From assembly GCF_045037415.1 (NCBI RefSeq), contig NZ_CP173438.1: a DNA stretch of 64,000 bases, one strand, 5' to 3'. Below the pieces are notes generated by a model. The model saw only the letters and a program-made list of their open reading frames with translations, was not told where the DNA came from and searched no databases. The translations under genes were made by a program, and so were the position numbers. The stretch comes from Escherichia coli. GTDB lineage: Bacteria; Pseudomonadota; Gammaproteobacteria; Enterobacterales; Enterobacteriaceae. Shown in pieces: positions 2,693 through 53,461 of the stretch. How positions within the stretch are numbered: position 1 is the stretch's first letter; each line of letters starts with the position of its first letter.

Positions 2693-5600
2693 ATGTCGGT
2701 ATGTCTGAAACCAGGAAAAATCATTGTGCTTCTGGGCATGTTGGCAGCCTTTATGCTGTCTGACTTTGCACGGGCAGAGGTGGAATGGCAGACATATCCT
2801 GGTTCTACAGGCGAGTTTAACGGTACAGTTCCTATTGCCGATAGCGCCAGCGTACCCGTTTATCAGGGAAGCGTTCAGCTTGATCCTGCTGCATCTCATG
2901 ATGTGGCGTTTTCTGCTAAACCGAATGAATTTAGCGTTGACGATGACGCTGCTAACCTGATAGTTGCTAATCCTCAGGACAGTGAAGGCGACCAGTTTTC
3001 TACACCACCTGCGCTGCGCTGGGAAAACCAGACGCCGCCGACCGTCAGTCTGGTGTGGGCGGATGCCGCCACGCCGGATACGCCGCTCAATCCACAGCCC
3101 ATCGCCAACCGCAGCTTTTGCGCGCAAGGTCTGGCCGGGCGTTCGCTGGTGGCCTGGCCACAGATTGATGCGCAGCAGACCATTCCACTGCTTTATCTGC
3201 TGACCTCGACCGGTTATCCCTATGAGGGGACGGTGGTGCTGGCTGACCAGAAAGTGACGCTGAATATCGCGCCCGCGCAGGGCGATTTAATTTCGGTGAG
3301 CGCCAGTGGTTATAACGAAACGCTCGGCGCGGCAAAAACCACCGTTGGCGGCACTATCACGCTGACCGTCACCACCAAAGATTGTCAGGGTAACGTCGCG
3401 GGTAATATTCCATTTATTATCAAGCGTAAAGATGCCCAAAACCGTCAGGGCGCGGTAAATAATACCGCGCCGGTGGTGCTGGATAGCACCGAGTTAACGA
3501 CGACGGTAACCGAGTATCGTGGCACATCGGATGCTAACGGTACGGCAACCATCACGGTGACCCAGCCTAACGGCCCCGGTGTTAAAACGCCGCTGGTAGT
3601 CGGCATTTCCGGCATTGCACAAACCAGTGAGGCGGCGGTGATCTTTACCGTGCTCACCAGCCCGGACGTGGCGCAGGCCACGATGTGGGGCCATATGGCG
3701 GAGACGGTGGAAGCCCATGGTTACACGTTCAGTAGACCAAAACTGGCGGCGGAAGTCAGTAACGAAAATGCCACGGTCGTCGATCACAATGAAACCTGGT
3801 CCACCTTTACCTGGAGCGGCGCAGATAGCCATTGCACCGTGCTGCCGGGCATGCGCCACTTCGGCGCACTGGCGACGGTGATTCCCTCCACGGTACAGAC
3901 TGTGCTCGGCTGGCCGATGCAGGGCGATTATTACTGGTCATCGCTGGCGGGGCTTACCGGGCAGCACCATGCGGCAGATGTCTCTAACCGTGGCGAAACG
4001 CAGAAGCCGGACAGCACCACGTTCCTCGTGAGCTGCGTGGATAAGCCCGCGCCTGACGTCGAGCCGAAAATCGTCCTCACGCCAGAAAACTATGATGACA
4101 CGGCGCAGGCGATGAAAGCGAAGGTGGGCGAGGATGCGACGATGCGTCTGGCCATCACCGACACGAAAAACAACGATCAACCGCTGGCGTATTACTACTT
4201 CTCGCTACATCTGGATGATGGCGTCAATCGTAAGAATCAAACCGACACTGCCTGGGAAGCCCATCCGGTACAGATTGCTGGCGGCAGTAATTTTCGCCAG
4301 GTCGACGCACATACCTATGAAGGCATGACCGACGCCAACGGCCAGGCTTCGCTCACCCTGAGCCAGCCCGGCGGCGCGGGGGTGAAAACCCATATCACGG
4401 CAAGAATGCGCAGCGATTTTAACGCCACAGATGCCAAAGATGTGATTTTTACCGTAATCACCAGCCCGGACAGCGACAAAGCGCGGATGTGGGGCCATAT
4501 GCGCGGCATTATTGAGTCCGGCAGTTTGTATAAACGCCCGTTGCTGGCGGATGAAACCGAGCATGAATTGGGAACAGTGCGGGAAAATAACGAAGACTGG
4601 GCGCTCTACGATCAAAACACCAGTATGCAGGCGGAATGCGGCGTCGGTCATATACCGCGCCAGAGCTCACTGGAAAGCCTGTTTTCAGCCCATCCCGGTA
4701 ACGCGATTGGTACTGAATATGGCTGGCCCACTGCACAACAGGGCTATTTAAGCGCGGTGGAGCAAGCCACGCATTCATCGGTGGATCTGGGGAACGGGAG
4801 CGTCGACAGCTATTCCGGCTTTAAGCCGAATTACCTCTCCTGTTCGGGTAATGAGATGGTAGCGAATGTTGAAGTCAGCACCGATCATGATGTGTCTGTT
4901 GGCACCCAAGCGCAAGCCAAAGTGGGTGACACCATTGTGATGACCGTGCGTACGATTAACTCGCTCAATAATATCCCTGTACCCTTTACTGCATTCACCA
5001 TTACCAAAGGTATGGGGTATAACCGAGCGGGGCAGGTGAGCGGGTTTGATGACCCGAGCAGTGGTGCAATCACGATGGATAACACGCAATACGGCACATC
5101 ACAGTCATCGAAGGTTTATGCGGGAATAACCGATGCCCGGGGCGTGGCGACGGTCGAGATTAAGCAACCACAGGGCGTCGGGCTAAAAACGGTGCTGAGC
5201 GTAACGCCGGTAAATTCCTACCTGCCGAATACCGTTAACTACAGCGTTATTTTTACTACCCCAACCAGCCCGGACGTTACCGGCGCGCAGATGTGGGGCC
5301 ATATGGATGAAACGATCACCGTTGATTCATCAACCTTTACCCGGCCTAAACTGGCGTCGGAAGTCGCCAGCCCGGACGGAACCCTGACCGAAAATAACGA
5401 AATCTGGGCGCGCGTGAGCCAGGCCAATACGTCCAGTACCAGTAAAGGTGGCTGCGACACCAATATGTTGCCACGTCGTTCCCAGCTAAGTGCGCTGTAT
5501 AACGCCAACAGTGGTAACGCGGTGCAAACGGCGCACGGTTGGCCAACACAGCGTCAGCCTTACTGGAGCAACTCACCGGCAGATAAAACTCCACACTTTT

Positions 5601-13891: not shown

Positions 13892-15469
13892 ATGACGGAA
13901 AACATTCATAAGCATCGCATCCTCATTCTGGACTTCGGTTCCCAGTATACTCAACTGGTTGCGCGCCGCGTGCGTGAACTGGGGGTTTACTGCGAACTGT
14001 GGGCGTGGGATGTGACAGAAGCACAAATTCGTGACTTCAATCCAAGCGGCATTATTCTTTCCGGCGGCCCGGAAAGTACTACTGAAGAAAACAGCCCGCG
14101 TGCGCCGCAGTATGTCTTTGAAGCAGGCGTACCGGTATTCGGCGTTTGCTATGGTATGCAGACCATGGCGATGCAGTTGGGCGGTCACGTTGAGGCTTCT
14201 AATGAACGTGAATTTGGCTACGCGCAGGTTGAAGTCGTAAACGACAGCGCACTGGTTCGCGGTATCGAAGATGCTCTGACCGCAGATGGTAAACCGCTGC
14301 TGGACGTCTGGATGAGCCACGGCGATAAAGTTACCGCTATCCCGTCCGACTTCGTCACCGTAGCCAGCACCGAAAGCTGCCCGTTTGCCATCATGGCCAA
14401 CGAAGAAAAACGCTTCTATGGCGTACAGTTCCACCCGGAAGTGACTCACACCCGCCAGGGTATGCGCATGCTGGAGCGTTTTGTGCGTGATATCTGCCAG
14501 TGTGAAGCCCTGTGGACGCCAGCGAAAATTATCGACGACGCTGTAGCCCGCATCCGCGAGCAGGTAGGCGACGATAAAGTCATCCTCGGCCTCTCTGGTG
14601 GCGTGGATTCCTCCGTAACCGCAATGCTGTTGCACCGCGCTATCGGTAAAAACCTGACTTGCGTATTCGTCGACAACGGCCTGCTGCGTCTCAACGAAGC
14701 AGAGCAGGTTCTGGATATGTTTGGCGATCACTTTGGTCTGAACATTGTTCACGTACCGGCAGAAGATCGCTTCTTGTCAGCGCTGGCTGGCGAAAACGAT
14801 CCGGAAGCAAAACGTAAAATCATCGGGCGCGTTTTCGTTGAAGTATTCGATGAAGAAGCGCTGAAACTGGAAGACGTGAAGTGGCTGGCGCAGGGCACCA
14901 TCTACCCTGACGTTATCGAATCTGCTGCTTCTGCAACCGGTAAAGCACACGTCATCAAATCTCACCACAACGTGGGTGGGCTGCCGAAAGAGATGAAGAT
15001 GGGCCTGGTTGAACCGCTGAAAGAGCTGTTCAAAGACGAAGTGCGTAAGATTGGTCTGGAGCTGGGCCTGCCGTATGACATGTTGTACCGTCACCCGTTC
15101 CCGGGACCAGGCCTTGGCGTTCGTGTTCTGGGGGAAGTGAAGAAAGAGTATTGTGACCTGCTGCGCCGTGCTGACGCCATCTTCATTGAAGAACTGCGTA
15201 AAGCGGACCTGTACGACAAAGTCAGCCAGGCGTTCACCGTCTTCCTGCCAGTACGTTCCGTTGGCGTAATGGGCGATGGTCGTAAGTATGACTGGGTTGT
15301 CTCTCTGCGTGCTGTCGAAACCATCGACTTTATGACCGCACACTGGGCACATCTGCCGTACGATTTCCTCGGTCGAGTTTCCAACCGCATTATCAATGAA
15401 GTGAATGGTATTTCCCGCGTGGTGTATGACATCAGCGGCAAGCCACCAGCAACTATTGAGTGGGAATGA
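13892..15469 (+). CDS. guaA: GMP synthase (glutamine-hydrolysing)
   Basis: 525-aa protein [36 protein letters not shown]..; glutamine amidotransferase plus ATP-pyrophosphatase (SGGVDSSV) domains. The last codons (IEWE-stop) lie within the prophage att core. Confidence 0.95.
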
Positions 15470-15471
15470 TT
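15455..15471. repeat. attL core (17-bp direct repeat) overlapping guaA stop codon
   Basis: Identical 17-mer at 55459-55475. Confidence 0.8.
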
Positions 15472-15517
15472 AACAGCTAACTCATAGCAACTCATTCCTA
15501 TTCAGATACTAATTTAA

Positions 15518-15546
15518 CCCTCTGTTTTTACAGAGGGTTTTTGTTT
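15518..15546 (+). terminator. Rho-independent terminator downstream of guaA (phage-supplied copy)
   Basis: ccctctg-ttttta-cagaggg plus T-run; near-identical hairpin with a different loop at 55502-55527. Confidence 0.7.
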
Positions 15547-15604
15547 TTATGTATTCATTTCTATTCACTCTACACCATATTTTTCGTCGGTACAGGTGAC
15601 GGTA

Positions 15605-15619
15605 TTACCTTAAAGGTAT
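15605..15619. promoter_or_regulatory. Imperfect copy of prophage palindromic motif (TTACC-TTAAA-GGTAT) upstream of int
   Basis: One mismatch to TTACC-N5-GGTAA; 43 bp upstream of int start. Confidence 0.4.
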
Positions 15620-15661
15620 ACTCTCATACCGTCATGAAAATGGTTTCTATACGGGTGAATT

Positions 15662-16918
15662 GTGCTTACCGATACAAAATTAAAAAACCTCAAGCCGCAG
15701 GACAAACTGTACAAGGTCTCCGATCGTGACGGGCTGTATGTAGCTGTGCTTACGTCAGGCACGGTCTCGTTTCGCTATGACTACCGTATCAACGGTCGCC
15801 GCGAAACACTGGTAATCGGGCAGTATGGGCGTGACGGTATCAGCCTGGCAGAAGCGCGAGAAGAACTGATTGCTGCAAAGAAGCTGCTTAAAGCAGGCCA
15901 GTCACCGGCTGCGGCTAAACGTGACGGTATTAAAAAGATTCGTGGTGCCGAGACGTTTGCGGTACATACCGACAGTTATATGAAACACGTCATCCTGGCT
16001 GACAGTACCCGCGCAATGAAGCAGGCGGTGATCGACCGTGACATACTTCCGGTTCTTGGCAACAAAATGATGGCTGAAATTACCACATCAATGGTTCGTG
16101 ATTTGTGTGACCGGATTGTCGAACGCGGTGGTCGGGCAACAGCAGTACAGGCCAGGGAGATCATCAGCAGCGTATACCGTCACGCCAATGACCGTGGTCA
16201 TGGTTTGTTTAATCCTGCGGCTGACATTAAACCTTCGTCTATCGCCATATTTAAACCACGAGAGCGAACACTGACACCAGAAGAAATTGGCCTGTTCTTC
16301 CGCACGCTGGATGCCATTGGTGCTATGGGCACTATGAAAATGGCTTTAAAGCTGGTGCTTATCACCATGGTTCGTAAGGGAGAATTCACCAATGCAACGT
16401 GGGATGAAATAGATTTTAAAAAATGGACATGGACAATTCCTTCAGACCGCATGAAGGGAAGTCGGGCGCACGTTATTTACCTGCCTAAACAGGCACAGGA
16501 TATATTAGTCGGGTTGCAGATGTGCGCTGGTGGAAGTGAATATCTGGTTCCTGGTCGTTACAATTTCCGGAAGCCATTATCTAATGCCGCGCTGAACTCT
16601 CTGATCGACAGAACGGTGAAAATAATAAATGAAGATGGTGAGCATATTCAGGATTTTACTGTACATGATATGCGCCGTACAGCCAGTACATTGTTGCATG
16701 AGGCTGGTTATCCTTCAGACTGGATTGAAAAGGCTCTGGCACACGAGCAGAAAGGTGTGCGCGCCGTATATAACAAAGCGGAATACGCCAGACAGCGCGC
16801 CTACATGTTGCAGCAGTGGGCCGATATGATTGATTCCTGGATTAACGGGGAGCATACGGATCTGATTCCGTTCTCCCCGTCGAAGTTTGAGAAGTGGATG
16901 GAAGACAGTAATAAATAA
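15662..16918 (+). CDS. int: Tyrosine integrase (P4-type N-terminal arm-binding domain)
   Basis: GTG start; MLTDTKLKNLKPQDKLYKVSDRDGLYVAV.. typical of P4-like integrases; C-terminal catalytic region with HxxR and terminal Tyr; adjacent to attL. Confidence 0.9.
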   Translation: MLTDTKLKNLKPQDKLYKVSDRDGLYVAVLTSGTVSFRYDYRINGRRETLVIGQYGRDGISLAEAREELIAAKKLLKAGQSPAAAKRDGIKKIRGAETFAVHTDSYMKHVILADSTRAMKQAVIDRDILPVLGNKMMAEITTSMVRDLCDRIVERGGRATAVQAREIISSVYRHANDRGHGLFNPAADIKPSSIAIFKPRERTLTPEEIGLFFRTLDAIGAMGTMKMALKLVLITMVRKGEFTNATWDEIDFKKWTWTIPSDRMKGSRAHVIYLPKQAQDILVGLQMCAGGSEYLVPGRYNFRKPLSNAALNSLIDRTVKIINEDGEHIQDFTVHDMRRTASTLLHEAGYPSDWIEKALAHEQKGVRAVYNKAEYARQRAYMLQQWADMIDSWINGEHTDLIPFSPSKFEKWMEDSNK

Positions 16919-24261: not shown

Positions 24262-24276
24262 TTACCTGTTAGGTAA
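24262..24276. promoter_or_regulatory. Palindromic operator-like motif TTACC-TGTTA-GGTAA
   Basis: Perfect copy, upstream partner of the site at 24324. Confidence 0.6.
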
Positions 24277-24296
24277 TAAAATTTTCTAAAATCTAT

Positions 24297-24324
24297 TGAT
24301 TTCGTGTCTTATGTGGTTTTTAAT
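24297..24324 (+). promoter_or_regulatory. Candidate sigma70 promoter (TTGATT-N16-TTTAAT) for the DUF1064/HNH operon
   Basis: -35 24297-24302, -10 24319-24324; the -10 abuts the palindromic motif at 24324-24338. Confidence 0.4.
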
Positions 24325-24338
24325 TACCTCAGAGGTAA
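24324..24338. promoter_or_regulatory. Palindromic operator-like motif TTACC-TCAGA-GGTAA overlapping the promoter -10/+1
   Basis: Perfect copy 4 nt upstream of the ATG at 24342. Confidence 0.6.
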
Positions 24339-28456: not shown

Positions 28457-28471
28457 TTACCACAACGGTAA
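28457..28471. promoter_or_regulatory. Palindromic operator-like motif TTACC-ACAAC-GGTAA upstream of terminase small subunit
   Basis: Perfect copy 18 nt upstream of the TerS ATG at 28489. Confidence 0.55.
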
Positions 28472-28488
28472 CTATTACCACGGTGGTT

Positions 28489-29085
28489 ATGATGCCTGCT
28501 GAACCTAAAACCTATAAACGCAAATCAACGCAATTTAAGCCACTAACAGCAATGCAGGAGGCTTATTGCCAGTCATACATCAAAACGCCTGAAAACCAGA
28601 CTCAGGCAGCGATTAACGCAGGATTCTCTCCAAATACAGCGGCAGTTAAAGCCAGTGTCATGATGCGCGATGAACGCATTCAAAAACGGATTGCCGAGTT
28701 GATGGAGGAGCGCAACAAACGAATGCGCGTCAGTGCTGATTACGTTCTCATGCGCCTGGTGGAGATCGACCAGATGGACGTGATCGACATCCTCAACGAC
28801 GATGGGAGCCTTAAACCAATCCGTGAGTGGCCGAAAATCTGGCGCACTACGCTTAGTGGCTTTGATCTGTCATCGACCATCATGAACATGAACGAGGATT
28901 CGATAGAGACAATCCTCAAAAAAATTAAATGGCCTGACAAGGTGAAGAACCTCGAACTGATTGGTAAGCACGTCGACGTCAACGCATTCAAAGAACGCCT
29001 GGATGTTAATGTGAATGTGACAATTGCTGATCGCATAGCAGCAGCCAGGAAGCGACTCAAAGAACGTCAGGATGGTAATCAGTGA
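28489..29085 (+). CDS. Terminase small subunit
   Basis: MMPAEPKTYKRKSTQFKPLTAMQEAYCQSYIKTPENQTQAAINAGFS.. typical TerS N-terminus; directly precedes TerL. Confidence 0.75.
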   Translation: MMPAEPKTYKRKSTQFKPLTAMQEAYCQSYIKTPENQTQAAINAGFSPNTAAVKASVMMRDERIQKRIAELMEERNKRMRVSADYVLMRLVEIDQMDVIDILNDDGSLKPIREWPKIWRTTLSGFDLSSTIMNMNEDSIETILKKIKWPDKVKNLELIGKHVDVNAFKERLDVNVNVTIADRIAAARKRLKERQDGNQ

Positions 29086-31219: not shown

Positions 31220-31296
31220 CTGGCGTGGCATGCAGGATTCGAACCTGCGACCAACCGCTTAGAAGGCGGTTGCTCTGTCCAACTGAGCTAATGCCA
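31220..31296 (-). tRNA. tRNA-Arg (anticodon UCU), phage-encoded
   Basis: Folded by hand: acceptor GTGGCAT/ATGCCAC, D-arm GCTC..GAGC, anticodon stem ACCGC/GCGGT with loop CTTCTAA (anticodon TCT), T-arm GCAGG-TTCGAAT-CCTGC, discriminator G and encoded CCA. Confidence 0.85.
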
Positions 31297-31619
31297 CAAC
31301 GCTGAGAGCACTTAGCCTGTTAAGGCGCCACACTTTGTCGCGGCTCCATAAATGCTCTCATCGTTGTACCCTCGTCTCTTCCGAGGCGTCACACCGAATC
31401 GCCGGGATGGTGAATCCCCGTGCGCGGAATAAAACCGCTCGACTTGCACATTCCGGCTACCTGGTTCGTTTGCCCGAGCAAGGGAGGGTGCCCCTTAAAC
31501 GTATCCAGACCGCTATCGGCGCATGTGCCATACGCCGTACTGCTCAAAATAAAAGCTCACTCCACCTGTTCAATTTAACGACAATCCAGTCAGGTTAGTA
31601 ACCGGAATGAACTCTTTGG

Positions 31620-31634
31620 TTACCTGAAAGGTAA
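31620..31634. promoter_or_regulatory. Palindromic operator-like motif TTACC-TGAAA-GGTAA upstream of the head gene cluster
   Basis: Perfect copy about 90 bp upstream of ORF 31725. Confidence 0.55.
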
Positions 31635-45235: not shown

Positions 45236-47710
45236 ATGAGACAGGAATGTATACAAGCGGTCCAGCAGGCGGCGCAGCGCACGTTAACGGCGCGAGAAAT
45301 ACAGAACATTGAAGACCGCATTTATCGAAATATGCGCTCCATTGCTCGTGATGACCCGATGTCGTGGAGACAACTTTCCGAATCAGAGCGGCTATATCGT
45401 GCAGCACAATTGGCATCTGAAGAATTACAGCGAGAAGCGGCATTAAAGAAACGTCGTGTGGCCCTCACTATAGCCGCACGTCAGAGATTGGATAAATTTA
45501 TCAATAGCTATCAAGGGGCTGATGGGAAACTTGGCGCTCTTAACCGTACTATTGCTTTTAATGCAGACGGTAAATCGAATTTCCTCTCTGTTGAGTCCAG
45601 AACAAAAGCCACTCGTGATTATGCATTGAGTCAATTGCAAGAGGCATTTGAAGCAGTTGATCCTCGCTTTTTTGGCCTGTTTGAAGATGAAGCTGGCGTG
45701 CGTGACCTGGTATATGAAATGCGAGGGCAAAATACTGGCAATGCTAAAGCAAGAAAAGGTGCTAAGGCGTGGAGAGAAGTTACAGAGCTGCTGCGCCGCC
45801 GGTTTAATGATGCTGGTGGGGACATTGGCTATCTCGAAAACTGGGGGATCCCTCAACATCATTCTATGGAAAAGGTTGGGGCGGTATCAAAGGATAAGTG
45901 GGTTGGCGATGTTATAGGTAAGCTGGATCGCAAATATTATACCCGAGCCGATGGACAACTGATGAACGATGCCGAGTTGTCTGCATTTCTTGGAGAGGCT
46001 TATAACACGATAGCTACTGGTGGGCTGAATAAGCTTACTGATACCGGAATGCGAATTTCCGGCGCACGTGCTAACCGTGGTAATGCATCACGACAGATAC
46101 ATTTCAAAAATGCAGATTCCTATCTCCAATATCAACAACTTTATGGTGATCGCTCTCTATGGGAAATCATGGTCGGTCACCTGGAAGGTATCAGTAAAGA
46201 TATTGCTCTGGTGGAAACATATGGTCCAAACCCCGATCATGTTTTCCGCTCCCTTCTTGATCAGGTGAAGGCAGAAACGGCAACAGCTAACCCGAGTAAA
46301 ACCGGTAAAGTCGAGCGGCTGGCGAACAACACAGAGAATCTGTACAACTTTATTTCCGGAAAGACACAGCCTGTAGCGAATCCGCACATCGCGCGATGGT
46401 CTGACAATATCCGCAACTGGCTGGTTGCCAGCAGACTCGGATCCGCGTTGCTGTCATCGTTCTCTGATCTTGGAACCATGTATCTGTCTGCGAAGGTTAC
46501 CAACCTTCCAATGAACCAGTTATTCCGCAACCAGCTTGAAGCTATGGACCCAACGAACCGTACAGAACTTGCGCGGGCGCGCCGCGCTGGTCTGGCGATG
46601 GAATCTCTACTTGGCAGCGTTAACCGCTGGGCGATGGATAATATGGGGCCGTCTGTGTCTCGTTGGGCTGCAACGGCGGTAATGCGTGCCAGTGGGCTTA
46701 CAGCATGGTCAGATGCGCACAAGCGCGCCTATGGCGTAACCATGATGGGAAGCCTGGGAGAAGTAGTGTCACGGACACCAGACCTTCGTAGCCTCGATGA
46801 TTCTGATTTTCGTATCCTGAAAAGCAAAGGGATTACTGACACAGACTGGAGCGTATGGAAGCTGGCGCAACAGGAGGACTGGGGGAACGGCAATAATACG
46901 ATGCTGACACCGGAAAGCATTATGCGTATCCCTGATTCAGCAGTTAAACATCTTGGTGAGCCTGAACGCGTGAAATTTGAGGCAATGCGTAAACTGCTCG
47001 GTGCCGTAACTGAAGAAGTTGATATGGCTGTTATTACACCGGGAGCACGTGAGCAACTGATAACCGGTTCTGGTATTCAGCGTGGAACATGGAAAGGTGA
47101 ATTAACGAGAAGTGTTTTCCTGTTTAAATCGTTCCCTATCTCGGTGGTTATGCGTCACTGGTCACGCGCTATGGGTATGCCGTCTGCTGGTGGGCGTGCG
47201 GCATATATTGCGACGTTTATTGCCAGTACGACCATTCTTGGCGCTTTGTCGCAGCAACTTAACGACCTTGCGTCTGGTCGTAATCCTCGCGAGATGACAG
47301 GAGAAGATGCTGCTAAATTTTGGCTTGGTGCTCTACTGAAAGGTGGTGGTCTTGGCCTTTACGGTGACTTTTTATTGTCAGATCACACTAGGTACGGAAG
47401 CGGCGCGCTGGCGTCGATGCTTGGCCCGGTAGCTGGTCTGGTTGATGACGTAGTGAAGATTGCTCAGGGCATACCGTTAAATGCTGTGGAAGGGAAGAGT
47501 GAGCAGACTGGTGGTGATCTGGTGAAGCTGGGGAAAGGTTTGATGCCTGGTGCGAATCTCTGGTACTTGAAGGCGGCTCTCGATCACATGATCTTTAACC
47601 AGATGCAGGAGTATTTTTCACCAGGCTATTTGCGTAAAATGGAGCAACGTTCGAAGAAAGAGTTTAACCAGACATACTGGTGGCGACCACAGGATGTCAC
47701 TCCGCAATAA
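45236..47710 (+). CDS. Large internal virion / ejection protein
   Basis: 824 aa last gene of the tail/core operon. Confidence 0.45.
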   Translation: MRQECIQAVQQAAQRTLTAREIQNIEDRIYRNMRSIARDDPMSWRQLSESERLYRAAQLASEELQREAALKKRRVALTIAARQRLDKFINSYQGADGKLGALNRTIAFNADGKSNFLSVESRTKATRDYALSQLQEAFEAVDPRFFGLFEDEAGVRDLVYEMRGQNTGNAKARKGAKAWREVTELLRRRFNDAGGDIGYLENWGIPQHHSMEKVGAVSKDKWVGDVIGKLDRKYYTRADGQLMNDAELSAFLGEAYNTIATGGLNKLTDTGMRISGARANRGNASRQIHFKNADSYLQYQQLYGDRSLWEIMVGHLEGISKDIALVETYGPNPDHVFRSLLDQVKAETATANPSKTGKVERLANNTENLYNFISGKTQPVANPHIARWSDNIRNWLVASRLGSALLSSFSDLGTMYLSAKVTNLPMNQLFRNQLEAMDPTNRTELARARRAGLAMESLLGSVNRWAMDNMGPSVSRWAATAVMRASGLTAWSDAHKRAYGVTMMGSLGEVVSRTPDLRSLDDSDFRILKSKGITDTDWSVWKLAQQEDWGNGNNTMLTPESIMRIPDSAVKHLGEPERVKFEAMRKLLGAVTEEVDMAVITPGAREQLITGSGIQRGTWKGELTRSVFLFKSFPISVVMRHWSRAMGMPSAGGRAAYIATFIASTTILGALSQQLNDLASGRNPREMTGEDAAKFWLGALLKGGGLGLYGDFLLSDHTRYGSGALASMLGPVAGLVDDVVKIAQGIPLNAVEGKSEQTGGDLVKLGKGLMPGANLWYLKAALDHMIFNQMQEYFSPGYLRKMEQRSKKEFNQTYWWRPQDVTPQ

Positions 47711-47721
47711 AAGGAGATATG

Positions 47722-47844
47722 ATGGTTCAAATAACTTTTATTGTACTAATATGTGCAGCGTTTTTATGCTATTCATACATTTTGATAAAAATGGGTTTCA
47801 ATTGGAATCTCTGTTGCGTGCAGCGGCATGGTTCGGCTTTGTAG
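47722..47844 (+). CDS. Small hydrophobic peptide (40 aa), uncertain
   Basis: SD aaggag 6 nt upstream of ATG 47722; MVQITFIVLICAAFLCYSYILIKMGFNWNLCCVQRHGSAL. The ORF-track alternative 47694-47882 is in another frame. Confidence 0.3.
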   Translation: MVQITFIVLICAAFLCYSYILIKMGFNWNLCCVQRHGSAL

Positions 47845-47929
47845 TATTAGGAATTGTATTGTTCGGAAGAATAATAAAATAACTAGTTAATTTGTGGATT
47901 GGTGCTGTTTTTCCATGATAGGGGTAATT

Positions 47930-48310
47930 ATGAGAAAAGTATTTTTGATTTTTGGATTTATGCTTCTCGTTGGATGCCAGTCAGCTGCACAGTTTGAAAG
48001 AAATATGCTTACGTGGCGCGGGCAGAGTATAGACGCAATGGTTCAGCAGTGGGGGTATCCTCAGGGAGAGCTTACATCTCCAGATGGAAACAGAGTGTAT
48101 GTTTACTCAAGCTCTGGTAGTTATAACGTACCACAAACCACAACGTATAATACTACGTCTAATCTAATTGGTAATACTATATATTCAAACACATACGCAA
48201 CAACTGATGGCGGTTATACACTCCATTTCAGTTGCTCTGTTTACGTTGAGTTTGGTGCTGATAAGATTATTAAAAATGTTACATGGCGCGGTAATAATTG
48301 CGTTGCGTGA
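47930..48310 (+). CDS. Lipoprotein (accessory gene)
   Basis: SD aggggtaa; lipoprotein signal peptide MRKVFLIFGFMLLVGC with lipobox LVGC; Ser/Thr/Tyr/Asn-rich mature part. Confidence 0.6.
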   Translation: MRKVFLIFGFMLLVGCQSAAQFERNMLTWRGQSIDAMVQQWGYPQGELTSPDGNRVYVYSSSGSYNVPQTTTYNTTSNLIGNTIYSNTYATTDGGYTLHFSCSVYVEFGADKIIKNVTWRGNNCVA

Positions 48311-48341
48311 CATGTCACAGGCCGCTTTCGCGGCCTTGTTT

Positions 48342-48503
48342 TTAACGAATGCCACCGCCACCCGGGCGGGAATCCGCAGAACGCCCACCGCAGCGGGAGC
48401 CGTCAGCAGCAGTGTCGCTGTCGTGCTGACAACGACCGGCAAAGGCCTGAGTTGAAGCTACCAGAGACAACAAAACGAACAGTGCAGCAAATGCTTTTTT
48501 CAT
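48342..48503 (-). CDS. Small secreted peptide candidate (53 aa), low confidence
   Basis: MKKAFAALFVLLSLVASTQAFA signal-peptide-like start followed by a Gly/Arg/Asp-rich tail; lies in a short GC-rich segment. Confidence 0.25.
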   Translation of the reverse strand: MKKAFAALFVLLSLVASTQAFAGRCQHDSDTAADGSRCGGRSADSRPGGGGIR

Positions 48504-48574
48504 TGTGAAATTTCCATCTATAAGCCACCTCAATGTGGCGTCAATGAGTGTAGCACTGACTTTTGTTTCGTCCA

Positions 48575-48597
48575 CAAAAAAGCCCGCGCTGCGGGCT
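48575..48597 (-). terminator. Rho-independent terminator after the 210-aa unknown gene
   Basis: On minus strand agcccgc-agc-gcgggct followed by TTTTTT. Confidence 0.6.
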
Positions 48598-48601
48598 TCT
48601 A

Positions 48602-49234
48602 TTAATGCAGTTTATCTTTGCTTATAACCAGTAGTCTGTGGGTATGCACATCTTTATCACTGCCCCAACAGAAATCAGCCCACTGGCTATAGAAATCATC
48701 CCATGATGTCATGAAGCTAAGAGGTCTATCTTCTTCAGAGCCATCTGAAACGTATACATTATATCCTGGGGTGTTTATAGCCCAAGAAATCATTCTTTCC
48801 CAGAATCTTCTCCCATCGATTGTTTGTTGCTCATCAGATACAACGATCGCATATTGCTCTAGGAAGAACTGAAAAAAAATCTGAGGCAAACCATGAACAG
48901 CACGGTCATGAATAACATTAGGCGTACGCCATACCATGATCTGCGTACATGTTCTTTTGGCTTCGACGATATCTTCCCGAAAGATTAACTTAACCGCATA
49001 CACCGTTTCTGGAGTATCGCTGGTAGTAATCATTCTGTAATGATCGCCATTACAAGATTTTACAAGGCGATAACCATAAGGTGTTGTGAATCCCGGAAGA
49101 ACGAAATCAACCACACCTTTCGCTAAGTAGCTTTCGGTGTGACTAGTGTTCTTCTCAGACATGTTCAGTTTTCTATCGAAATCTGCTTCTGGGATAATGT
49201 ATGGCATCGCTTTTCTTGTTGTATTTGTTCTCAT
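48602..49234 (-). CDS. Hypothetical protein (210 aa) of unknown function in the accessory locus
   Basis: SD gggagga before ATG; own promoter region with palindromic motif and own terminator; no recognisable family. Confidence 0.5.
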   Translation of the reverse strand: MRTNTTRKAMPYIIPEADFDRKLNMSEKNTSHTESYLAKGVVDFVLPGFTTPYGYRLVKSCNGDHYRMITTSDTPETVYAVKLIFREDIVEAKRTCTQIMVWRTPNVIHDRAVHGLPQIFFQFFLEQYAIVVSDEQQTIDGRRFWERMISWAINTPGYNVYVSDGSEEDRPLSFMTSWDDFYSQWADFCWGSDKDVHTHRLLVISKDKLH

Positions 49235-49293
49235 TTCGTCCTCCCATGTTTGGCTACAGGACGCGTTTTGAAGGGAAGATTAAAAATGCTTTC

Positions 49294-49308
49294 TTACCCT
49301 TGAGGTAA
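49294..49308. promoter_or_regulatory. Palindromic operator-like motif TTACC-CTTGA-GGTAA
   Basis: Perfect copy 60 bp upstream of the 210-aa gene start. Confidence 0.55.
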
Positions 49309-49380
49309 TAGTACGCTATTCACCCCCAGTCTGCAATCTGTACAGAATTATTTAAAGGCACATCCCTGTGCCGCCGCCCG

Positions 49381-50037
49381 TCAGAAGAACCCTGCCTTGT
49401 CGTTGATGTACTCCGCGTGCGTCTGGATATCACGCAGGCATTTGCTCACACCAACGATGTAGCAGAACATGGTGGTCAGCTCCGCCGCCGCGCCCGATAC
49501 GTCGTGCCCGTCGTCCTGTAACTGGTTCAGCAGATTCATCAGCAGTGAGTTCTCCGTCAGGCCGAGAACACCAGACGGCGAGTGAATCAGGCTGCGGTAG
49601 CCGGGCTTCAGTGGGGCACTGTATTCTTTTTTGTCTTCCAGCTTGATCGCCTCCATAATGGCGGGCATGAAGCCTGACAAGACCTTCTCCACTTTTGTTT
49701 CTTGTTGTCTTAAACGTTTCTCGCATTCAATGAAGTAGCGTCGCACCTGGCGACCTTTTTCGTTACGCTCGACCATCGCCAGCTCTTTGGCTGTATCAAG
49801 GGTGAGGTGGTACTCTTTGCGGTTGTGGCCGCCTCTACCAGATGTTTGCTTTCCCAAATTGGAAAGCAAAATATAGTCTTGATTTTCAATGAATTCGTAT
49901 TCTGATATGCGATTTGTAATCCATGCTGCAAACACCTTTTTAACACCTAAAAAAGCGTGCAGATCGCGGGCATTACAAAGTAGGGCTGTTTCGTTAGATA
50001 TAGTGCCGTTGAATACGGGGATGAGTTGAGCGTTCAT
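49381..50037 (-). CDS. Antirepressor (AntA-like N-terminal domain plus KilAC-like C-terminal domain)
   Basis: N-terminus ..[36 protein letters not shown].. matches the AntA/AntB pattern as recalled; C-terminal about 80 aa homologous to the downstream 85-aa protein. Confidence 0.65.
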
Positions 50038-50310
50038 GATGGCGTCTCCACTTAGCGAATTACATCACCACCGCTGAGAACCAATCAGATGGTGGTGAAC
50101 TGAACGGAGTTGGTCTTACCGGCCTAAGTGGTACCGGCGTCCTTTCGGACCCCCATTCAGCCCACCATAATTCTGGCATGACTGTGCTATACGCATAAAA
50201 AAACCACGTCTGGCGTGGTATGCGCCACTTAGTAATCCGGGAGAACCAATCCCGGCACTGGATTTTGCCAGTGCCCGATTACTATGGCACAAGAGGAGTG
50301 CGATGTAAAT

Positions 50311-50325
50311 TTACCGCAAAGGTAA
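50311..50325. promoter_or_regulatory. Palindromic operator-like motif TTACC-GCAAA-GGTAA nested inside a larger palindrome
   Basis: Perfect copy flanked by ggagtgc (50294-50300) and gcactcc (50332-50338). Confidence 0.55.
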
Positions 50326-50356
50326 ATATAAGCACTCCATTTGGTAATTTCAAACC

Positions 50357-50614
50357 TTATCTGGTTTGTTTTCGTAATTGTTCGGCACAATAGTCGAGAT
50401 GTGTTTGCAGATCCTGCATAGACATCTGTGAGCTGGTGACGTAGTTAATCAGTGCAGTCAGTTCGGCAAGTGGGCCATCGACATTAAATCCATCCTTATC
50501 GAGATCCCGGAGTAATTTCATCAAGTGCGATCCCTCCACCAGTGACCTGACGCCTCCCGGCGTGTGAATCCTTTCGGTAAATCCGTCTTCCAGTGGATAG
50601 TGATACTGCTGCAT
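50357..50614 (-). CDS. Small antirepressor-like protein (KilAC-like domain only, 85 aa)
   Basis: MQQYHYPLEDGF..; about 45 percent identical to the C-terminal domain of the 218-aa antirepressor (shared ..IH(S/T)P.GV..L.E.S.LM.LL..L..DG..V.G..AELT..Y..DxQTH..Y); LexA box 22 bp upstream. Confidence 0.6.
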   Translation of the reverse strand: MQQYHYPLEDGFTERIHTPGGVRSLVEGSHLMKLLRDLDKDGFNVDGPLAELTALINYVTSSQMSMQDLQTHLDYCAEQLRKQTR

Positions 50615-50635
50615 CTTATCTTCTCCATGCAATAA

Positions 50636-50651
50636 CTGTATATTTATACAG
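50636..50651. promoter_or_regulatory. LexA (SOS) box CTGT-N8-ACAG
   Basis: aaCTGTATATTTATACAGta, near-perfect match to the E. coli LexA consensus; overlaps a TATAAA -10-like element of the minus-strand promoter. Confidence 0.75.
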
Positions 50652-50690
50652 TAGCAAATAATTTGTTTGCTATCCAGCACGTTTTGCAAA

Positions 50691-50705
50691 TTACCTGAAA
50701 GGTAA
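50691..50705. promoter_or_regulatory. Palindromic operator-like motif TTACC-TGAAA-GGTAA between antirepressor-like gene and tailspike
   Basis: Perfect copy in the divergent intergenic region. Confidence 0.55.
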
Positions 50706-50809
50706 TATCTATTCGTATTTACAGCCTTTCTATCCATATGTGGTTTTCCAGGTAATAGAATAACCAGATATGCGGCGCAACGGGTGCTGCGACTATCTGG
50801 AGATTTAAC

Positions 50810-53461
50810 ATGACGGTTTCAACCGAAGTTGACCACAACGAATACACCGGTAACGGAGCTACGACATCATTTCCGTATACCTTCCGTATTTTCAAAAAAT
50901 CCGACCTGGTTGTTCAGGTGTCTGACCTGAACGGGAACGTAACAGAATTGGTTCTGGATACTGACTACACAGTAACCAATGCTGGAGGATATAATGGCGG
51001 TAATGTAATTCTGTCGAAGGCGTTGGCTAACGGTTATCATATTTCTATATCACGAGAGCTCCCGGTTACGCAGGATACTGATTTGCGTAATCAGGGTAAG
51101 TTCTTCGCTGAGGTACATGAAGACGCGTTCGATAAACTGACAATGCTTATTCAAAAGTGTTTTTCATGGATGAGGTTAGCACTTATAAAACCAAGCATTC
51201 TGGCTAACTATTATGATGCAAAAAATAATAAGATATCAAATCTAGCAAATGCCACTGACAGAAACGATGCTGTCAATAAAGGTTATGTTGATGATCTTTT
51301 TACTGGAGGTGTAACGCCTACATCTAACAGCGCTAAAAACGATATTTTTACAAATCACCAAAGAAAGATTGTAGCTACGATGCCGCTTCTTTTTCCTGAA
51401 TATGATGCGATTATGGCTGCTAACCCGTCAGCAACTTATATGTATCCTCAAGGATTCTGCGTTAGCGAAGATTTGATATACATCACTTATCCATTTGAGC
51501 CTAAACAGACGAATAATGTCGTCGCAGTATTTAACATATCTGGTATTTATCAAGGTTATTTCTATGTTCAGGCTGGCGGCCCAGGCTTCGCTGCTGAAGG
51601 AATCGTGGTTACGTCAGACTATGGCCCCAAAAAAATGTTTGTTGGTCACACAAACGGAATACTGCGTGAATTTAATATGGAGGGGGCATTATACGGAAGC
51701 AATCTGCCTCTTGTACAAAACCATGATGTTGGATTATTCAACCAGTTCAGCTACAGAAGAGGTATATGGCTCGTTGAGCAGAATGCGCCAGAAGTAGGAC
51801 AGAAAATCACAAGAACTGTACTTGCAGTGTTCGACAGTGGTTTCAATCGCCTGTCAACTATAACGCTGCCGTTACATGATGTTGGGTATGTAACTAAAAG
51901 CACCTCACCTTATGCGCCTTATTTCAACAAGCGTCAGGGTATTGCGGTAGGTGATAACTACTTTGTCTGCGGCTATGGCGGCTTCATAGCTGATGGGGCA
52001 GGAAGCGCAGGATATAACGAATATCAGGGCAGCAAAGTTTTTAACCCTGACGGTACAAAGCGAACTGAATCAATGCTTCATCCTCAGGCCATGATGGATT
52101 TAATGAAAGCCGCAGGATTGAACGTCACTCGCATAGAAAATGAAGGCGTTTGTGTTTCTCAGGATGGAAAATCCATTTATTCACTTTACATTCATCAGGA
52201 AAGAACTGGCTCTGAACCTTACAATTCAGGTTTGGTTATTTTCGAAGATTTCTCCACTGATAAAGATGCTATCGATTTTACACCTGCATCCAGGCTTTAC
52301 CGCGGATTTGATATCGATCACGCGAGCATTGGGGTATATCCCCGTAGTGCGAAGGGGATTGTTAACCCTGTAGATGGTACGTTGTTCACTAACATGACTG
52401 AAATTCTTCGCTATATGCAGGAGATGAGTCAGAAGGCATTTAATTTTTACACAGGGACTGTCAGCATTGCTGATATATCTGGCGTGGCAATCCCTTCCAG
52501 CACATATGTTGAAATACTGAATGCGAATAATCAGACTTTTATAGTCAACTATTATTCATCTGATAGTGGCATTAGTTATTTGGTTGCAACTAATCCTTCT
52601 GGTGACTTTGTATTTGTGCGCCAGCGACCGGCACAGTGGGCATCTAACTTAACCATTCAGCAAAACGCAGATCCTGATACAAACCAATTAAACCGCATCA
52701 CTGCATCATCATATGCCGGTGCAACTACAAACTCTCAGAAAATATTGGTCCTTGACCAGCAGGCTACAGCTAGCGCAAATAGCTTGGTATTGGGCGGTAG
52801 TTCTTCTGTGTTTAGGTCTGCCACCACGGTGGATATTGCATGCAACAGCGACCCGACAGCATTGGGAGGAACCATACGCTGGCGGTTTTATGATACAGGT
52901 CTTCGCCCGTTTGCTGACAATACCTATAATTTTGGTCAGGCATCGTTTCGTATTAAAGACGCCTACTTTGCAAATGCCCCAACCGTTTCATCAGATGCCA
53001 CGCTGAAAACCAATCCCGAGGCAATATCAGATTTAAGTGAAATGCTTTCTTCTGATAGAGACAGCATTCTTGATGCCTGGGGCGATATTTCTGTTGTGGC
53101 GTATCGATGGCTCGACGCTATATCCATGAAGGGCGATGGTGCCAGATGGCATTTTGGCGTCATGGCTCAGCAGGTAAGGGATGTATTCTTGGCGCACGGA
53201 ATTGATGGAACCAGATTTGGCCTTCTTTGCTATGACGAGTGGGATGATATTTTTGAGCCGGTAATCGCGACTAAAGAGATTACCGATACGTCTGGTGAGT
53301 TGGTCACCGTCGAATATGACACCGGAGAACAGAGGCTGGTTAAAAAAGCGGGTAGTTCATGGGGTATACGGCCTGACCAGTGCGCTTGGCTTGAGGCTGC
53401 ATATCAGCGCCGTCGATGCGATCGTATTGAAGAGCGACTCGAACTATTGGAATCAAAATAA
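50810..53461 (+). CDS. Tailspike / tail fiber with C-terminal intramolecular chaperone (peptidase S74-like) domain
   Basis: 883 aa; conserved phage fiber N-terminal anchor (..YTGNGATTSFPYTFRIF..); C-terminal ..DAWGDISVVAYRWLDAI..GDGARWHFGVMAQQVRDVF.. matches auto-cleaving chaperone domains of tailspikes as recalled. Confidence 0.8.
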   Translation: MTVSTEVDHNEYTGNGATTSFPYTFRIFKKSDLVVQVSDLNGNVTELVLDTDYTVTNAGGYNGGNVILSKALANGYHISISRELPVTQDTDLRNQGKFFAEVHEDAFDKLTMLIQKCFSWMRLALIKPSILANYYDAKNNKISNLANATDRNDAVNKGYVDDLFTGGVTPTSNSAKNDIFTNHQRKIVATMPLLFPEYDAIMAANPSATYMYPQGFCVSEDLIYITYPFEPKQTNNVVAVFNISGIYQGYFYVQAGGPGFAAEGIVVTSDYGPKKMFVGHTNGILREFNMEGALYGSNLPLVQNHDVGLFNQFSYRRGIWLVEQNAPEVGQKITRTVLAVFDSGFNRLSTITLPLHDVGYVTKSTSPYAPYFNKRQGIAVGDNYFVCGYGGFIADGAGSAGYNEYQGSKVFNPDGTKRTESMLHPQAMMDLMKAAGLNVTRIENEGVCVSQDGKSIYSLYIHQERTGSEPYNSGLVIFEDFSTDKDAIDFTPASRLYRGFDIDHASIGVYPRSAKGIVNPVDGTLFTNMTEILRYMQEMSQKAFNFYTGTVSIADISGVAIPSSTYVEILNANNQTFIVNYYSSDSGISYLVATNPSGDFVFVRQRPAQWASNLTIQQNADPDTNQLNRITASSYAGATTNSQKILVLDQQATASANSLVLGGSSSVFRSATTVDIACNSDPTALGGTIRWRFYDTGLRPFADNTYNFGQASFRIKDAYFANAPTVSSDATLKTNPEAISDLSEMLSSDRDSILDAWGDISVVAYRWLDAISMKGDGARWHFGVMAQQVRDVFLAHGIDGTRFGLLCYDEWDDIFEPVIATKEITDTSGELVTVEYDTGEQRLVKKAGSSWGIRPDQCAWLEAAYQRRRCDRIEERLELLESK

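Follow-up and report, generated by a model that had tools for sequence, protein, structure and literature searches.

The locus described here occupies positions 47,711 to 50,809 of a 64,000-nucleotide stretch of Escherichia coli DNA (the window; contig NZ_CP173438.1), carries two antirepressor genes, and lies in a prophage whose late-region DNA and proteins match Uetakevirus, the epsilon15-like podoviruses (phiV10, phiv142-3, TL-2011b, and epsilon15). Upstream are the genes for proteins of 600 and 824 amino acids (aa), equivalent to gp16 and gp17 (phrog_1145 and phrog_684), the second of which ends at 47710; downstream, starting at 50810, is the gene for an 883-aa tailspike with an epsilon15-type N-terminal domain. 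The rest of the prophage comprises an integrase gene (15662–16918), the gene for the repressor Rep (Table 1), replication genes, terminase, and portal. The interval itself holds five genes: one for a lipoprotein and, on the minus strand, four for a 53-aa secreted peptide, a 210-aa protein, and antirepressors (Ant) of 218 and 85 aa. An earlier note on this DNA, made from the letters alone, had given the same borders, the same five genes, and two genes of antirepressor type, and all of this stands: our open reading frame (ORF) calling agrees with the RefSeq (PGAP) annotation of a 99.9%-identical E. coli prophage, and the two antirepressors are recognisable from Pfam AntA in the larger and homology to PDB 5D50 in the smaller. 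That description did not include the two RNA genes, the LexA box, the possible membrane ORF of 40 codons, or the identity with a crystallised Ant.

As had been proposed, the segment is accessory. It is also variable, with length and gene content differing among the relatives: ≈0.7 kb in epsilon15, 1.7 kb in phiV10, 2.9 kb in phiv142-3, 3.1 kb here, and 5.9 kb in TL-2011b. The gene for the 85-aa Ant is the only one in the interval that is common to all of them. The whole 3.5-kb segment is found at an identity of at least 99% in about a dozen of 5,426 complete E. coli genomes, and a partial locus in 897 of them.

The 85-aa protein is a close relative of an Ant of known structure. It matches chain E of 5D50 (“Anti-repressor protein”) with an E-value of 4e-47, residues 2–84 aligning to 3–85 at ≈87% identity (counted from the printed alignment), and is 84% identical to epsilon15 gp19 and 98–100% identical to phiV10 gp24 and TL-2011b gp47; Pfam gave no match. 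Rep, encoded outside the interval, matches chain A of the same entry (“Repressor”, E 4e-42, residues 1–190). Entry 5D50 is the Rep–Ant complex of the epsilon15-like Salmonella phage SPC32H, whose antirepression system was reportedly described by Kim & Ryu in 2013 and Kim et al. in 2016. In SPC32H, Rep binds palindromic DNA as a tetramer, and an Ant tetramer binds two Rep dimers, breaking the Rep tetramer (PMC9638917); by analogy, the 85-aa Ant would bind Rep and release it from operator DNA. The arrangement is also that of SPC32H, with ant next to the tailspike gene, upstream of it and divergently oriented, preceded by a LexA box, and with a palindromic operator of the same type. The LexA box, within TACTGTATAAATATACAGTT, is close to consensus and is one of four matches to CTGT-N8-ACAG in the 64 kb (0.64 expected), and epsilon15 has one at the equivalent position, so that LexA control of the small ant promoter is a natural prediction. 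Together, the Ant homology and the LexA box mark the 85-aa gene as the SOS-triggered induction gene of the prophage rather than as cargo. The locus differs from SPC32H in its E. coli host and possibly in a second, larger Ant under RNA control and in three cargo genes; the large Ant, the RNA control, and the three cargo genes are absent from the epsilon15 interval.

Rep is the predicted target of both antirepressors, and also the predicted ligand of a palindrome, TTACC-N5-GGTAA, which occurs 18 times with at most one mismatch (11 times exactly), compared with 1.13 expected from shuffled sequence. Copies flank rep on both sides (21157, 21219, 21931, and 21979), and three exact copies lie within the locus (49294, 50311, and 50691). 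The first coincides with the promoter-like site of the 210-aa gene, the second with the tandem promoter-like sites upstream of the 218-aa Ant, and the third lies between the divergent small ant and tailspike genes, where the GenBank record of epsilon15 has an equivalent palindrome, ATTACCTGTAAGGTAAT, annotated as a repressor binding site. An operator-bearing promoter had been claimed for each minus-strand gene: this is correct for three of the four units, but not for the 53-aa gene, whose promoter-like site has none. The three units with an operator are predicted to be silent in the lysogen, provided that Rep binds there. Further palindromes, often paired and 18–62 bp apart, precede other units: 24262/24324 (24262–24338) before a RusA-like/HNH gene pair, 28457/28475 (28457–28489) at the start of the small terminase gene, and 31620 (31620–31634) before the portal gene. 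This genome-wide scatter of Rep sites recalls C1 of P1.

The 218-aa Ant is composed of two domains. It has an N-terminal AntA domain (PF08346, residues 22–92, E 8e-26) and matches phrog_377 (Ant), and residues 137–213 are 42% identical to the 85-aa Ant (E 7e-20) and match 5D50 chain E with E 8e-14. Relatives exchange the N-terminal domain for BRO-N and keep the C-terminal 120 residues at 45–74% identity; the Ant-like C-terminal domain is found in all Uetakevirus-type loci, whatever the N-terminal domain, and is lacking from the antirepressors that stand behind the same RNA elements (see below) in other phages. Since the C-terminal domain thus tracks the lineage of Rep and the small Ant, the large Ant probably targets the same Rep. 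A functional result comes from the closely related E. coli Uetakevirus vB_EcoP_ZX5, in which overexpression of the BRO-N-type large Ant, ORF4, lowered lysogeny, cutting lysogens from 10^9 to 10^6 per mL (PMC9782041). ORF4 differs from the present Ant in having BRO-N rather than AntA at its N-terminus, and PMC9782041 is silent on RNAs and on a small Ant. In phiV10, the large BRO-N Ant gp23 (4522–5106) loses similarity beyond residue ≈180 and has a length of 194 aa. Lacking the greater part of the Ant-like C-terminal domain, this copy has probably been frameshifted or lost its activity.

Between the two antirepressor genes are two RNA elements, an isrK-type leader and a C4-type antisense RNA, both matching their Rfam models over the full length and above the gathering score. 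The leader begins 7 nucleotides (nt) after the CATAGT −10 hexamer of the second tandem promoter, and ends in an intrinsic terminator, which is the one that the earlier note had assigned to the 85-aa gene: it sits 140 nt downstream of that gene and belongs to the leader. C4 carries two recognition segments, and both have two targets, one on each side of C4. The b′ loop, CCACTTAG, is exactly complementary to CTAAGTGG, which is present in the leader (b1) and again 3′ of C4 (b2), and a′, AAGACCAA, pairs with GATTGGTTCTC in the leader (a1) and downstream (a2); a1/b1 and a2/b2 are identical. The downstream copy is placed so that b2 overlaps the GGAG Shine–Dalgarno sequence (50049–50046) of the 218-aa Ant. 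The leader–C4 transcript folds better than all 200 shuffled sequences (z −3.84).

We aligned 14 loci (the present one and 13 related ones, including those of Enterobacter, Klebsiella, Hafnia, Yersinia, and APSE phages) to follow these segments; the isrK–C4 tandem precedes the Ant gene in 13 of the 13 related loci with an Ant, and the tandem-promoter/operator arrangement is kept in all of the enterobacterial Uetakevirus-type loci. The comparison used only loop/target complementarity matrices, as folding whole-sequence duplexes of C4 with the leader or the downstream region had given long, uninformative duplexes. Eight b′ classes and three a′ classes were found, every b′ with its matching b1/b2 and every a′ with its matching a1/a2, and the phages carry the a and b classes in reassorted combinations. 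The longest complementary run is 8.5 nt for cognate against 4.8 nt for non-cognate pairs of b′ with b1, and 8.4 against 5.6 nt with b2; for a′ the values are 6.9 against 5.1 nt (a1) and 7.1 against 5.3 nt (a2). The reassortment of specificities points to selection for immunity diversity among these prophages. A separate feature of the alignment is an invariant segment 3′ of C4, GGTGGTGA (50062–50100, minus strand; alignment columns ≈190–216), which is complementary to the 3′ arm of C4, TCACCACC; an unprocessed transcript could thus form an alternative hairpin presenting a2 in its loop, which may be equivalent to the alternative structures A and B reported at the isrK locus.

Table 1. Coordinates of the antirepressor locus features and of the repressor gene; positions are those of the window.
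Feature	Position	Strand	Remarks
Candidate 40-codon single-transmembrane ORF	47722–47844	+	directly after the gp17-like gene; AAGGAG 5 nt upstream
Lipoprotein, 126 aa	47930–48310	+	lipobox LLVGC
GC-rich hairpin AGGCCGC-TTTC-GCGGCCT	48319–48336		between the convergent lipoprotein and 53-aa genes; + strand terminator (T-run 3′)
Secreted peptide, 53 aa	48342–48503	−	signal peptide MKKAFAALFVLLSLVASTQAFA
Promoter-like TTGACG-N16-TATAGA of the 53-aa gene	48516–48544	−	read from sequence; without repressor operator
Terminator AGCCCGC-AGC-GCGGGCT + TTTTT	48575–48597	−	after the 210-aa gene; read from sequence
210-aa protein, uncharacterised family	48602–49234	−
Operator TTACCTCAAGGGTAA	49294–49308		overlaps the −10 hexamer and start site of the 210-aa promoter
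Promoter-like TTGCAG-N17-TACTAT of the 210-aa gene	49294–49336	−	consensus match
218-aa Ant	49381–50037	−	AntA domain and C-terminal small-Ant-like domain
Target copy 2	50046–50086	−	a2 GATTGGTTCTC 50086–50076; b2 CTAAGTGG 50055–50048
39-codon ORF over C4	50060–50179	−	stops 20 nt before the ant start
C4-type antisense RNA	50088–50172	−	Rfam RF01695, 61.2 bits (gathering 45), model 1–87/87
C4 a′ segment AAGACCAA	50117–50110	−	single-stranded
C4 b′ loop CCACTTAG	50131–50124	−
isrK-type leader RNA	50197–50274	−	Rfam RF01394, 60.9 bits (gathering 50), model 1–77/77
Leader intrinsic terminator ACCACG-CCAGA-CGTGGT + T7 run	50219–50197	−
Target copy 1	50251–50225	−	a1 50251–50241 (loop of leader hairpin 2); b1 50232–50225
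Tandem promoter-like sites TTGAAA-17-TATATT and TTTACA-17-CATAGT	50281–50353	−	upstream of the 218-aa Ant
Operator TTACCTTTGCGGTAA	50311–50325		between the tandem promoters; overlaps the −10 of the first, abuts the −35 of the second
85-aa Ant, SPC32H type (epsilon15 gp19 family)	50357–50614	−	PDB 5D50 chain E homology
LexA (SOS) box CTGTATATTTATACAG	50636–50651		22 nt upstream of the small ant start codon
Operator ATTACCTTTCAGGTAAT	50690–50706		divergent region of the small ant and tailspike genes
Prophage repressor Rep, 194 aa	21291–21875	−	PDB 5D50 chain A homology, phrog_8; outside the 3-kb segment

On this basis, we read the segment as the antirepression (“second immunity”) region of a Uetakevirus E. 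coli prophage, accompanied by three small cargo genes, and give this reading a probability of about 0.75. In the lysogen, host LexA would hold the small ant gene off through the SOS box between its promoter hexamers, with a probable contribution of Rep through the operator ≈40 bp upstream, while Rep would keep the leader–C4–Ant and 210-aa promoters off. DNA damage would remove LexA, and the small Ant then made would bind Rep and, as its homology to SPC32H implies, break the DNA-binding Rep tetramer. The promoter predicted to be under Rep would drive, in this order, the isrK-like leader with its terminator, C4, a2/b2 over the Shine–Dalgarno sequence, and the 218-aa Ant. We propose, by analogy with the known systems, that the operon transcript is processed to release C4, which then represses Ant synthesis in trans. 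When transcription is low, the leader terminator would stop most transcripts, and C4 derived from read-through would pair with a2/b2 and block translation of Ant. Once Rep is removed, abundant leader RNA would compete for C4 through a1/b1, allowing the large Ant to be translated, and its C-terminal domain would attack the same Rep, reinforcing derepression and locking the switch. When a naive cell is infected, C4 accumulating early would hold back the large Ant and so give Rep the chance to establish lysogeny; where a prophage is already resident, its C4 would silence Ant from an incoming phage with the same a′/b′ type, a sequence-specific immunity.

If this is correct, the 85-aa “hypothetical protein” next to the tailspike gene in hundreds of E. 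coli genomes is an SOS-triggered antirepressor that decides induction, and the unannotated 320 bp beside it are a two-RNA gate for a second antirepressor. The core circuitry is largely known already, and the locus is in that respect mostly ordinary; it does, however, unite systems that have been studied separately, the SPC32H Rep–Ant protein switch and the P1 c4/Gifsy-1 IsrK RNA switch.

The RNA module has close parallels in two of these. The immI region of P1/P7, of which the c4 system is summarised in PMC12197685, has the same order of a1/b1, C4 RNA, a2/b2 over the ribosome-binding site, and antirepressor gene; its loop specificities vary between P1 and P7 as they do among the relatives here, and in P1 as well the operators of the main repressor are scattered over the genome, with one on this operon. 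It differs in that icd is absent here, b2 lies directly on the ant Shine–Dalgarno sequence, the leader ends in an isrK-type terminator, Ant (AntA with an SPC32H-Ant-like domain) is unrelated to P1 Ant, and the phage is a chromosomally integrating podovirus. In the isrK–orf45–anrP region of Gifsy-1, the isrK leader terminator is read through, a processed ≈80-nt RNA complementary to IsrK is produced, and translation of the downstream antirepressor depends on IsrK (PMC4825925). The present locus shares the leader with a leaky-type terminator, the element for an ≈80-nt RNA, and then an antirepressor gene, together with a short ORF (39 codons here) overlapping the processed RNA, but its promoter carries the Uetakevirus Rep operator, and neither the ORF list nor the family matches showed an evident antQ-type antiterminator next to the locus. 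Binding of Hfq and trans-activation of Ant translation are experimental properties of the Gifsy-1 RNA (PMC4825925), and the leader might share them by analogy. From the three-way co-variation, it seems that IsrK corresponds to the “a1/b1” copy and the processed orf45 RNA to a homologue of C4, a connection that a limited literature search did not find.

The immI region of P22 (mnt–arc–ant, sar) is also located between the genes for internal/ejection proteins and the tailspike, and it too has an antirepressor that is silent in the lysogen and controlled by an antisense RNA; here there is no Mnt or Arc, the antisense RNA is of another family, and the Ant protein is unrelated. In records of APSE phages, the tandem pair of isrK and C4 is already annotated upstream of a BRO-N gene (PMC7313666), although the APSE Ant lacks the SPC32H-Ant-like domain.

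Several points count against our interpretation. The pairing of a′ with a1 and a2 is weaker here, with six contiguous pairs including a G–U compared with seven in relatives. Targets a1 and a2 (50241–50251 and 50076–50086) share an extra T (GATTGGTTCTC) relative to the near-identical phiv142-3 (GATTGGTCTC), a′ being unchanged, and it is this concerted change at both targets that lowers the a-site pairing from seven pairs to six. The Rfam c4-a1b1 model overlaps the leader at 36.2 bits, below its gathering score of 46.7, and the ORF list contains no icd-like, ant-coupled ORF of the P1 kind between C4 and ant. The 39-codon ORF that does lie over C4 occupies the position of Gifsy-1 orf45, whose conservation is at the nucleotide and not the amino-acid level (PMC4825925); because the ORF here stops short of ant and does not overlap its start, the translational coupling of orf45 and anrP may not apply. 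The promoters are assigned from consensus matches, and the AntA domain could direct the large Ant to another target than Rep. Finally, immunity would require enough C4 in the lysogen, which Rep-repressed promoters, if they are its only ones, might not supply.

The earlier note had seen in the segment a site for lysogenic conversion, superinfection exclusion, or defence genes, and a whole island of prophage-expressed cargo benefiting the host would account for a content that varies among close relatives (TL-2011b has a YafO-family toxin module in the slot), for a 210-aa family that travels alone, as a single mobile gene, among phages of podo-, sipho-, and P1-like types and is also found as a chromosomal orphan, for the lack of a repressor operator at the lipoprotein and peptide genes, and for a lipoprotein fold that resembles BamE, OsmE, BLIP, and a type VI secretion system (T6SS) immunity protein. 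The core, however, is the phage's own lysis–lysogeny circuitry: antirepressors make up two of the five proteins, the smaller one with ≈87% identity to an Ant of solved structure, the intergenic “spacer” encodes the RNA control of Ant, and three of the four minus-strand units have the prophage repressor operator on their promoter. As genes under Rep are predicted to be off in the lysogen, this argues against lysogenic conversion or prophage-encoded defence for them. That no protein resembles a known defence system had been stated before and was borne out, with zero PADLOC-DB v2 families at E ≤ 0.1 for seven ORF translations of the locus and only insignificant NCBIfam matches. We therefore consider an island of this kind unlikely for the segment as a whole; its defence version is without support, and disfavoured for the repressor-controlled genes. 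Such a role is conceivable only for the lipoprotein and the peptide and, in another form, for the 210-aa protein. A role in virion morphogenesis or DNA ejection can be set aside more firmly. The genes do lie inside the late region, and the first terminator downstream of gp17 comes only after the lipoprotein gene, which late transcripts therefore probably cover; but epsilon15 makes virions with just gp18 and gp19 in the interval, the gene content differs in every relative examined, and four of the genes are antisense to the late operon. The comparison with relatives effectively refutes this explanation, in line with the earlier view that these are not morphogenesis components.

The remaining alternative concerns the 218-aa Ant, which might act not on its own Rep but on the repressors of other resident prophages, as in Gifsy-like cross-talk, or might itself be a DNA-binding regulator, with the Ant-like C-terminal domain serving only to oligomerise, possibly in mixed tetramers with the small Ant. 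This would fit the exchange of AntA for BRO-N at the N-terminus, the trans-acting antirepressors known in Salmonella, the truncated C-terminal domain tolerated by phiV10, and the tetrameric state of SPC32H Ant (PMC9638917), by which the homologous domain could be a tetramerisation module. It seems improbable to us nonetheless: the C-terminal domain is limited to phages with an SPC32H-type Rep and a small Ant, the promoter bears the phage's own operator, and the overexpressed ZX5 equivalent shifts the same phage towards lysis (PMC9782041).

Within an antirepression region, three genes are left as cargo. The 210-aa protein has no Pfam, NCBIfam, or PADLOC match, and a profile search of its family against PDB sequences gave spurious matches only; a structural model weakly suggests a GNAT-like fold, which in turn hints at a small-molecule or protein-modifying enzyme. 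The family comprises 917 clusters at 50% identity, and 29 columns are invariant among 25 sequences, including Q137-T138-x-x-G141-x-R143, which is not the canonical acetyl-CoA motif Q/R-x-x-G-x-G/A; the loop between β4 and α3 was placed at residues 133–143 from the secondary structure of the model. Among distant homologues, P0182 has no significant Pfam domain and P0193 only an N-terminus of the YgiT/MqsA zinc-finger type. Homologues stand as solitary genes in the tail operons of Serratia siphovirus-type prophages; one lies antisense between tail genes and a sit-like gene in a Citrobacter P1-like element, and orphan chromosomal copies are found in Photorhabdus (between phosphotransferase system genes and hda) and Xenorhabdus (ppc/metF). 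A linkage of the gene to ant modules was considered and rejected, the other family members being solitary. Its own Rep-overlapped promoter would make the 210-aa gene an early or induction gene here. It is conceivable, though rather doubtful, that the proteins form a new GNAT-like family of mobile single-gene effectors, acting here as a Rep-controlled host-takeover or counter-defence enzyme at induction or infection and not as a defence encoded by the prophage. The terminator that had been noted behind the gene is present, and clear, although a consensus terminator scan missed it.

The lipoprotein and the 53-aa peptide are the only genes that fit a classical “moron,” their lack of an operator making expression in the lysogen plausible, and they most likely act on the cell envelope. 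The lipoprotein has no Pfam match and is modelled as an outer-membrane-type protein with the fold given above. A BamE-like lipoprotein beside the 210-aa homologue of a Serratia prophage showed no sequence similarity to it, so the apparent three-gene cassette is not homologous throughout. Residues 34–84 match one YVTN-type β-propeller repeat of an archaeal S-layer protein (PDB 1l0q, E 5e-10); as a single short repeat, this was dropped as functional evidence, and with a predicted fold like that of BamE and BLIP it probably reflects a shared β-hairpin motif. The 53-aa peptide, also present in phiv142-3 and TL-2011b, has no Pfam match and falls in phrog_3117 and phrog_14503 (“membrane associated protein,” moron category); its signal peptide ends, as read by eye, at AFA, leaving a mature part of 31 aa that is rich in Gly, Arg, and Asp and has two Cys. 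The candidate membrane ORF, which is weak as a gene and is not annotated by PGAP, has the position of the small membrane proteins epsilon15 gp18 and phiV10 gp21, with no sequence similarity to either.

In base composition, the segment is AT-rich over much of its length (GC 0.33–0.44), as had been noted, and the GC-rich patch (0.585 at 48300–48499) is the mature part of the 53-aa peptide together with the GC hairpin; the patch is not the only one, richer stretches also lying at 49300–49700 (GC 0.54–0.58) and 50000–50300.

The same slot is used differently in other phages. TL-2011b (2780–5000) has a P22-type arc–ant module with a sar RNA (Rfam, 44.8 bits) there, which brings the interval to three antirepressor genes, as well as the YafO-family toxin gene, which has a small ORF upstream of it, and a further 1.1 kb without annotation. 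In the K1 strains E. coli CE10 and APEC O1, the locus is joined to an endosialidase tailspike, and the N-terminus of the large Ant is BRO-N and not AntA, so that neither the tailspike body nor the N-terminal domain of Ant is exchanged together with the flanking genes. Elsewhere in the prophage, a tRNA-Arg gene (anticodon TCT; 31221–31297, minus strand) lies between the terminase and portal regions. For ZX5, phiV10, and epsilon15, the reported integration site is the 3′ end of guaA (PMC9782041); here, within 13892–16918, a 525-aa ORF ends just before the integrase gene, probably at the left prophage junction.

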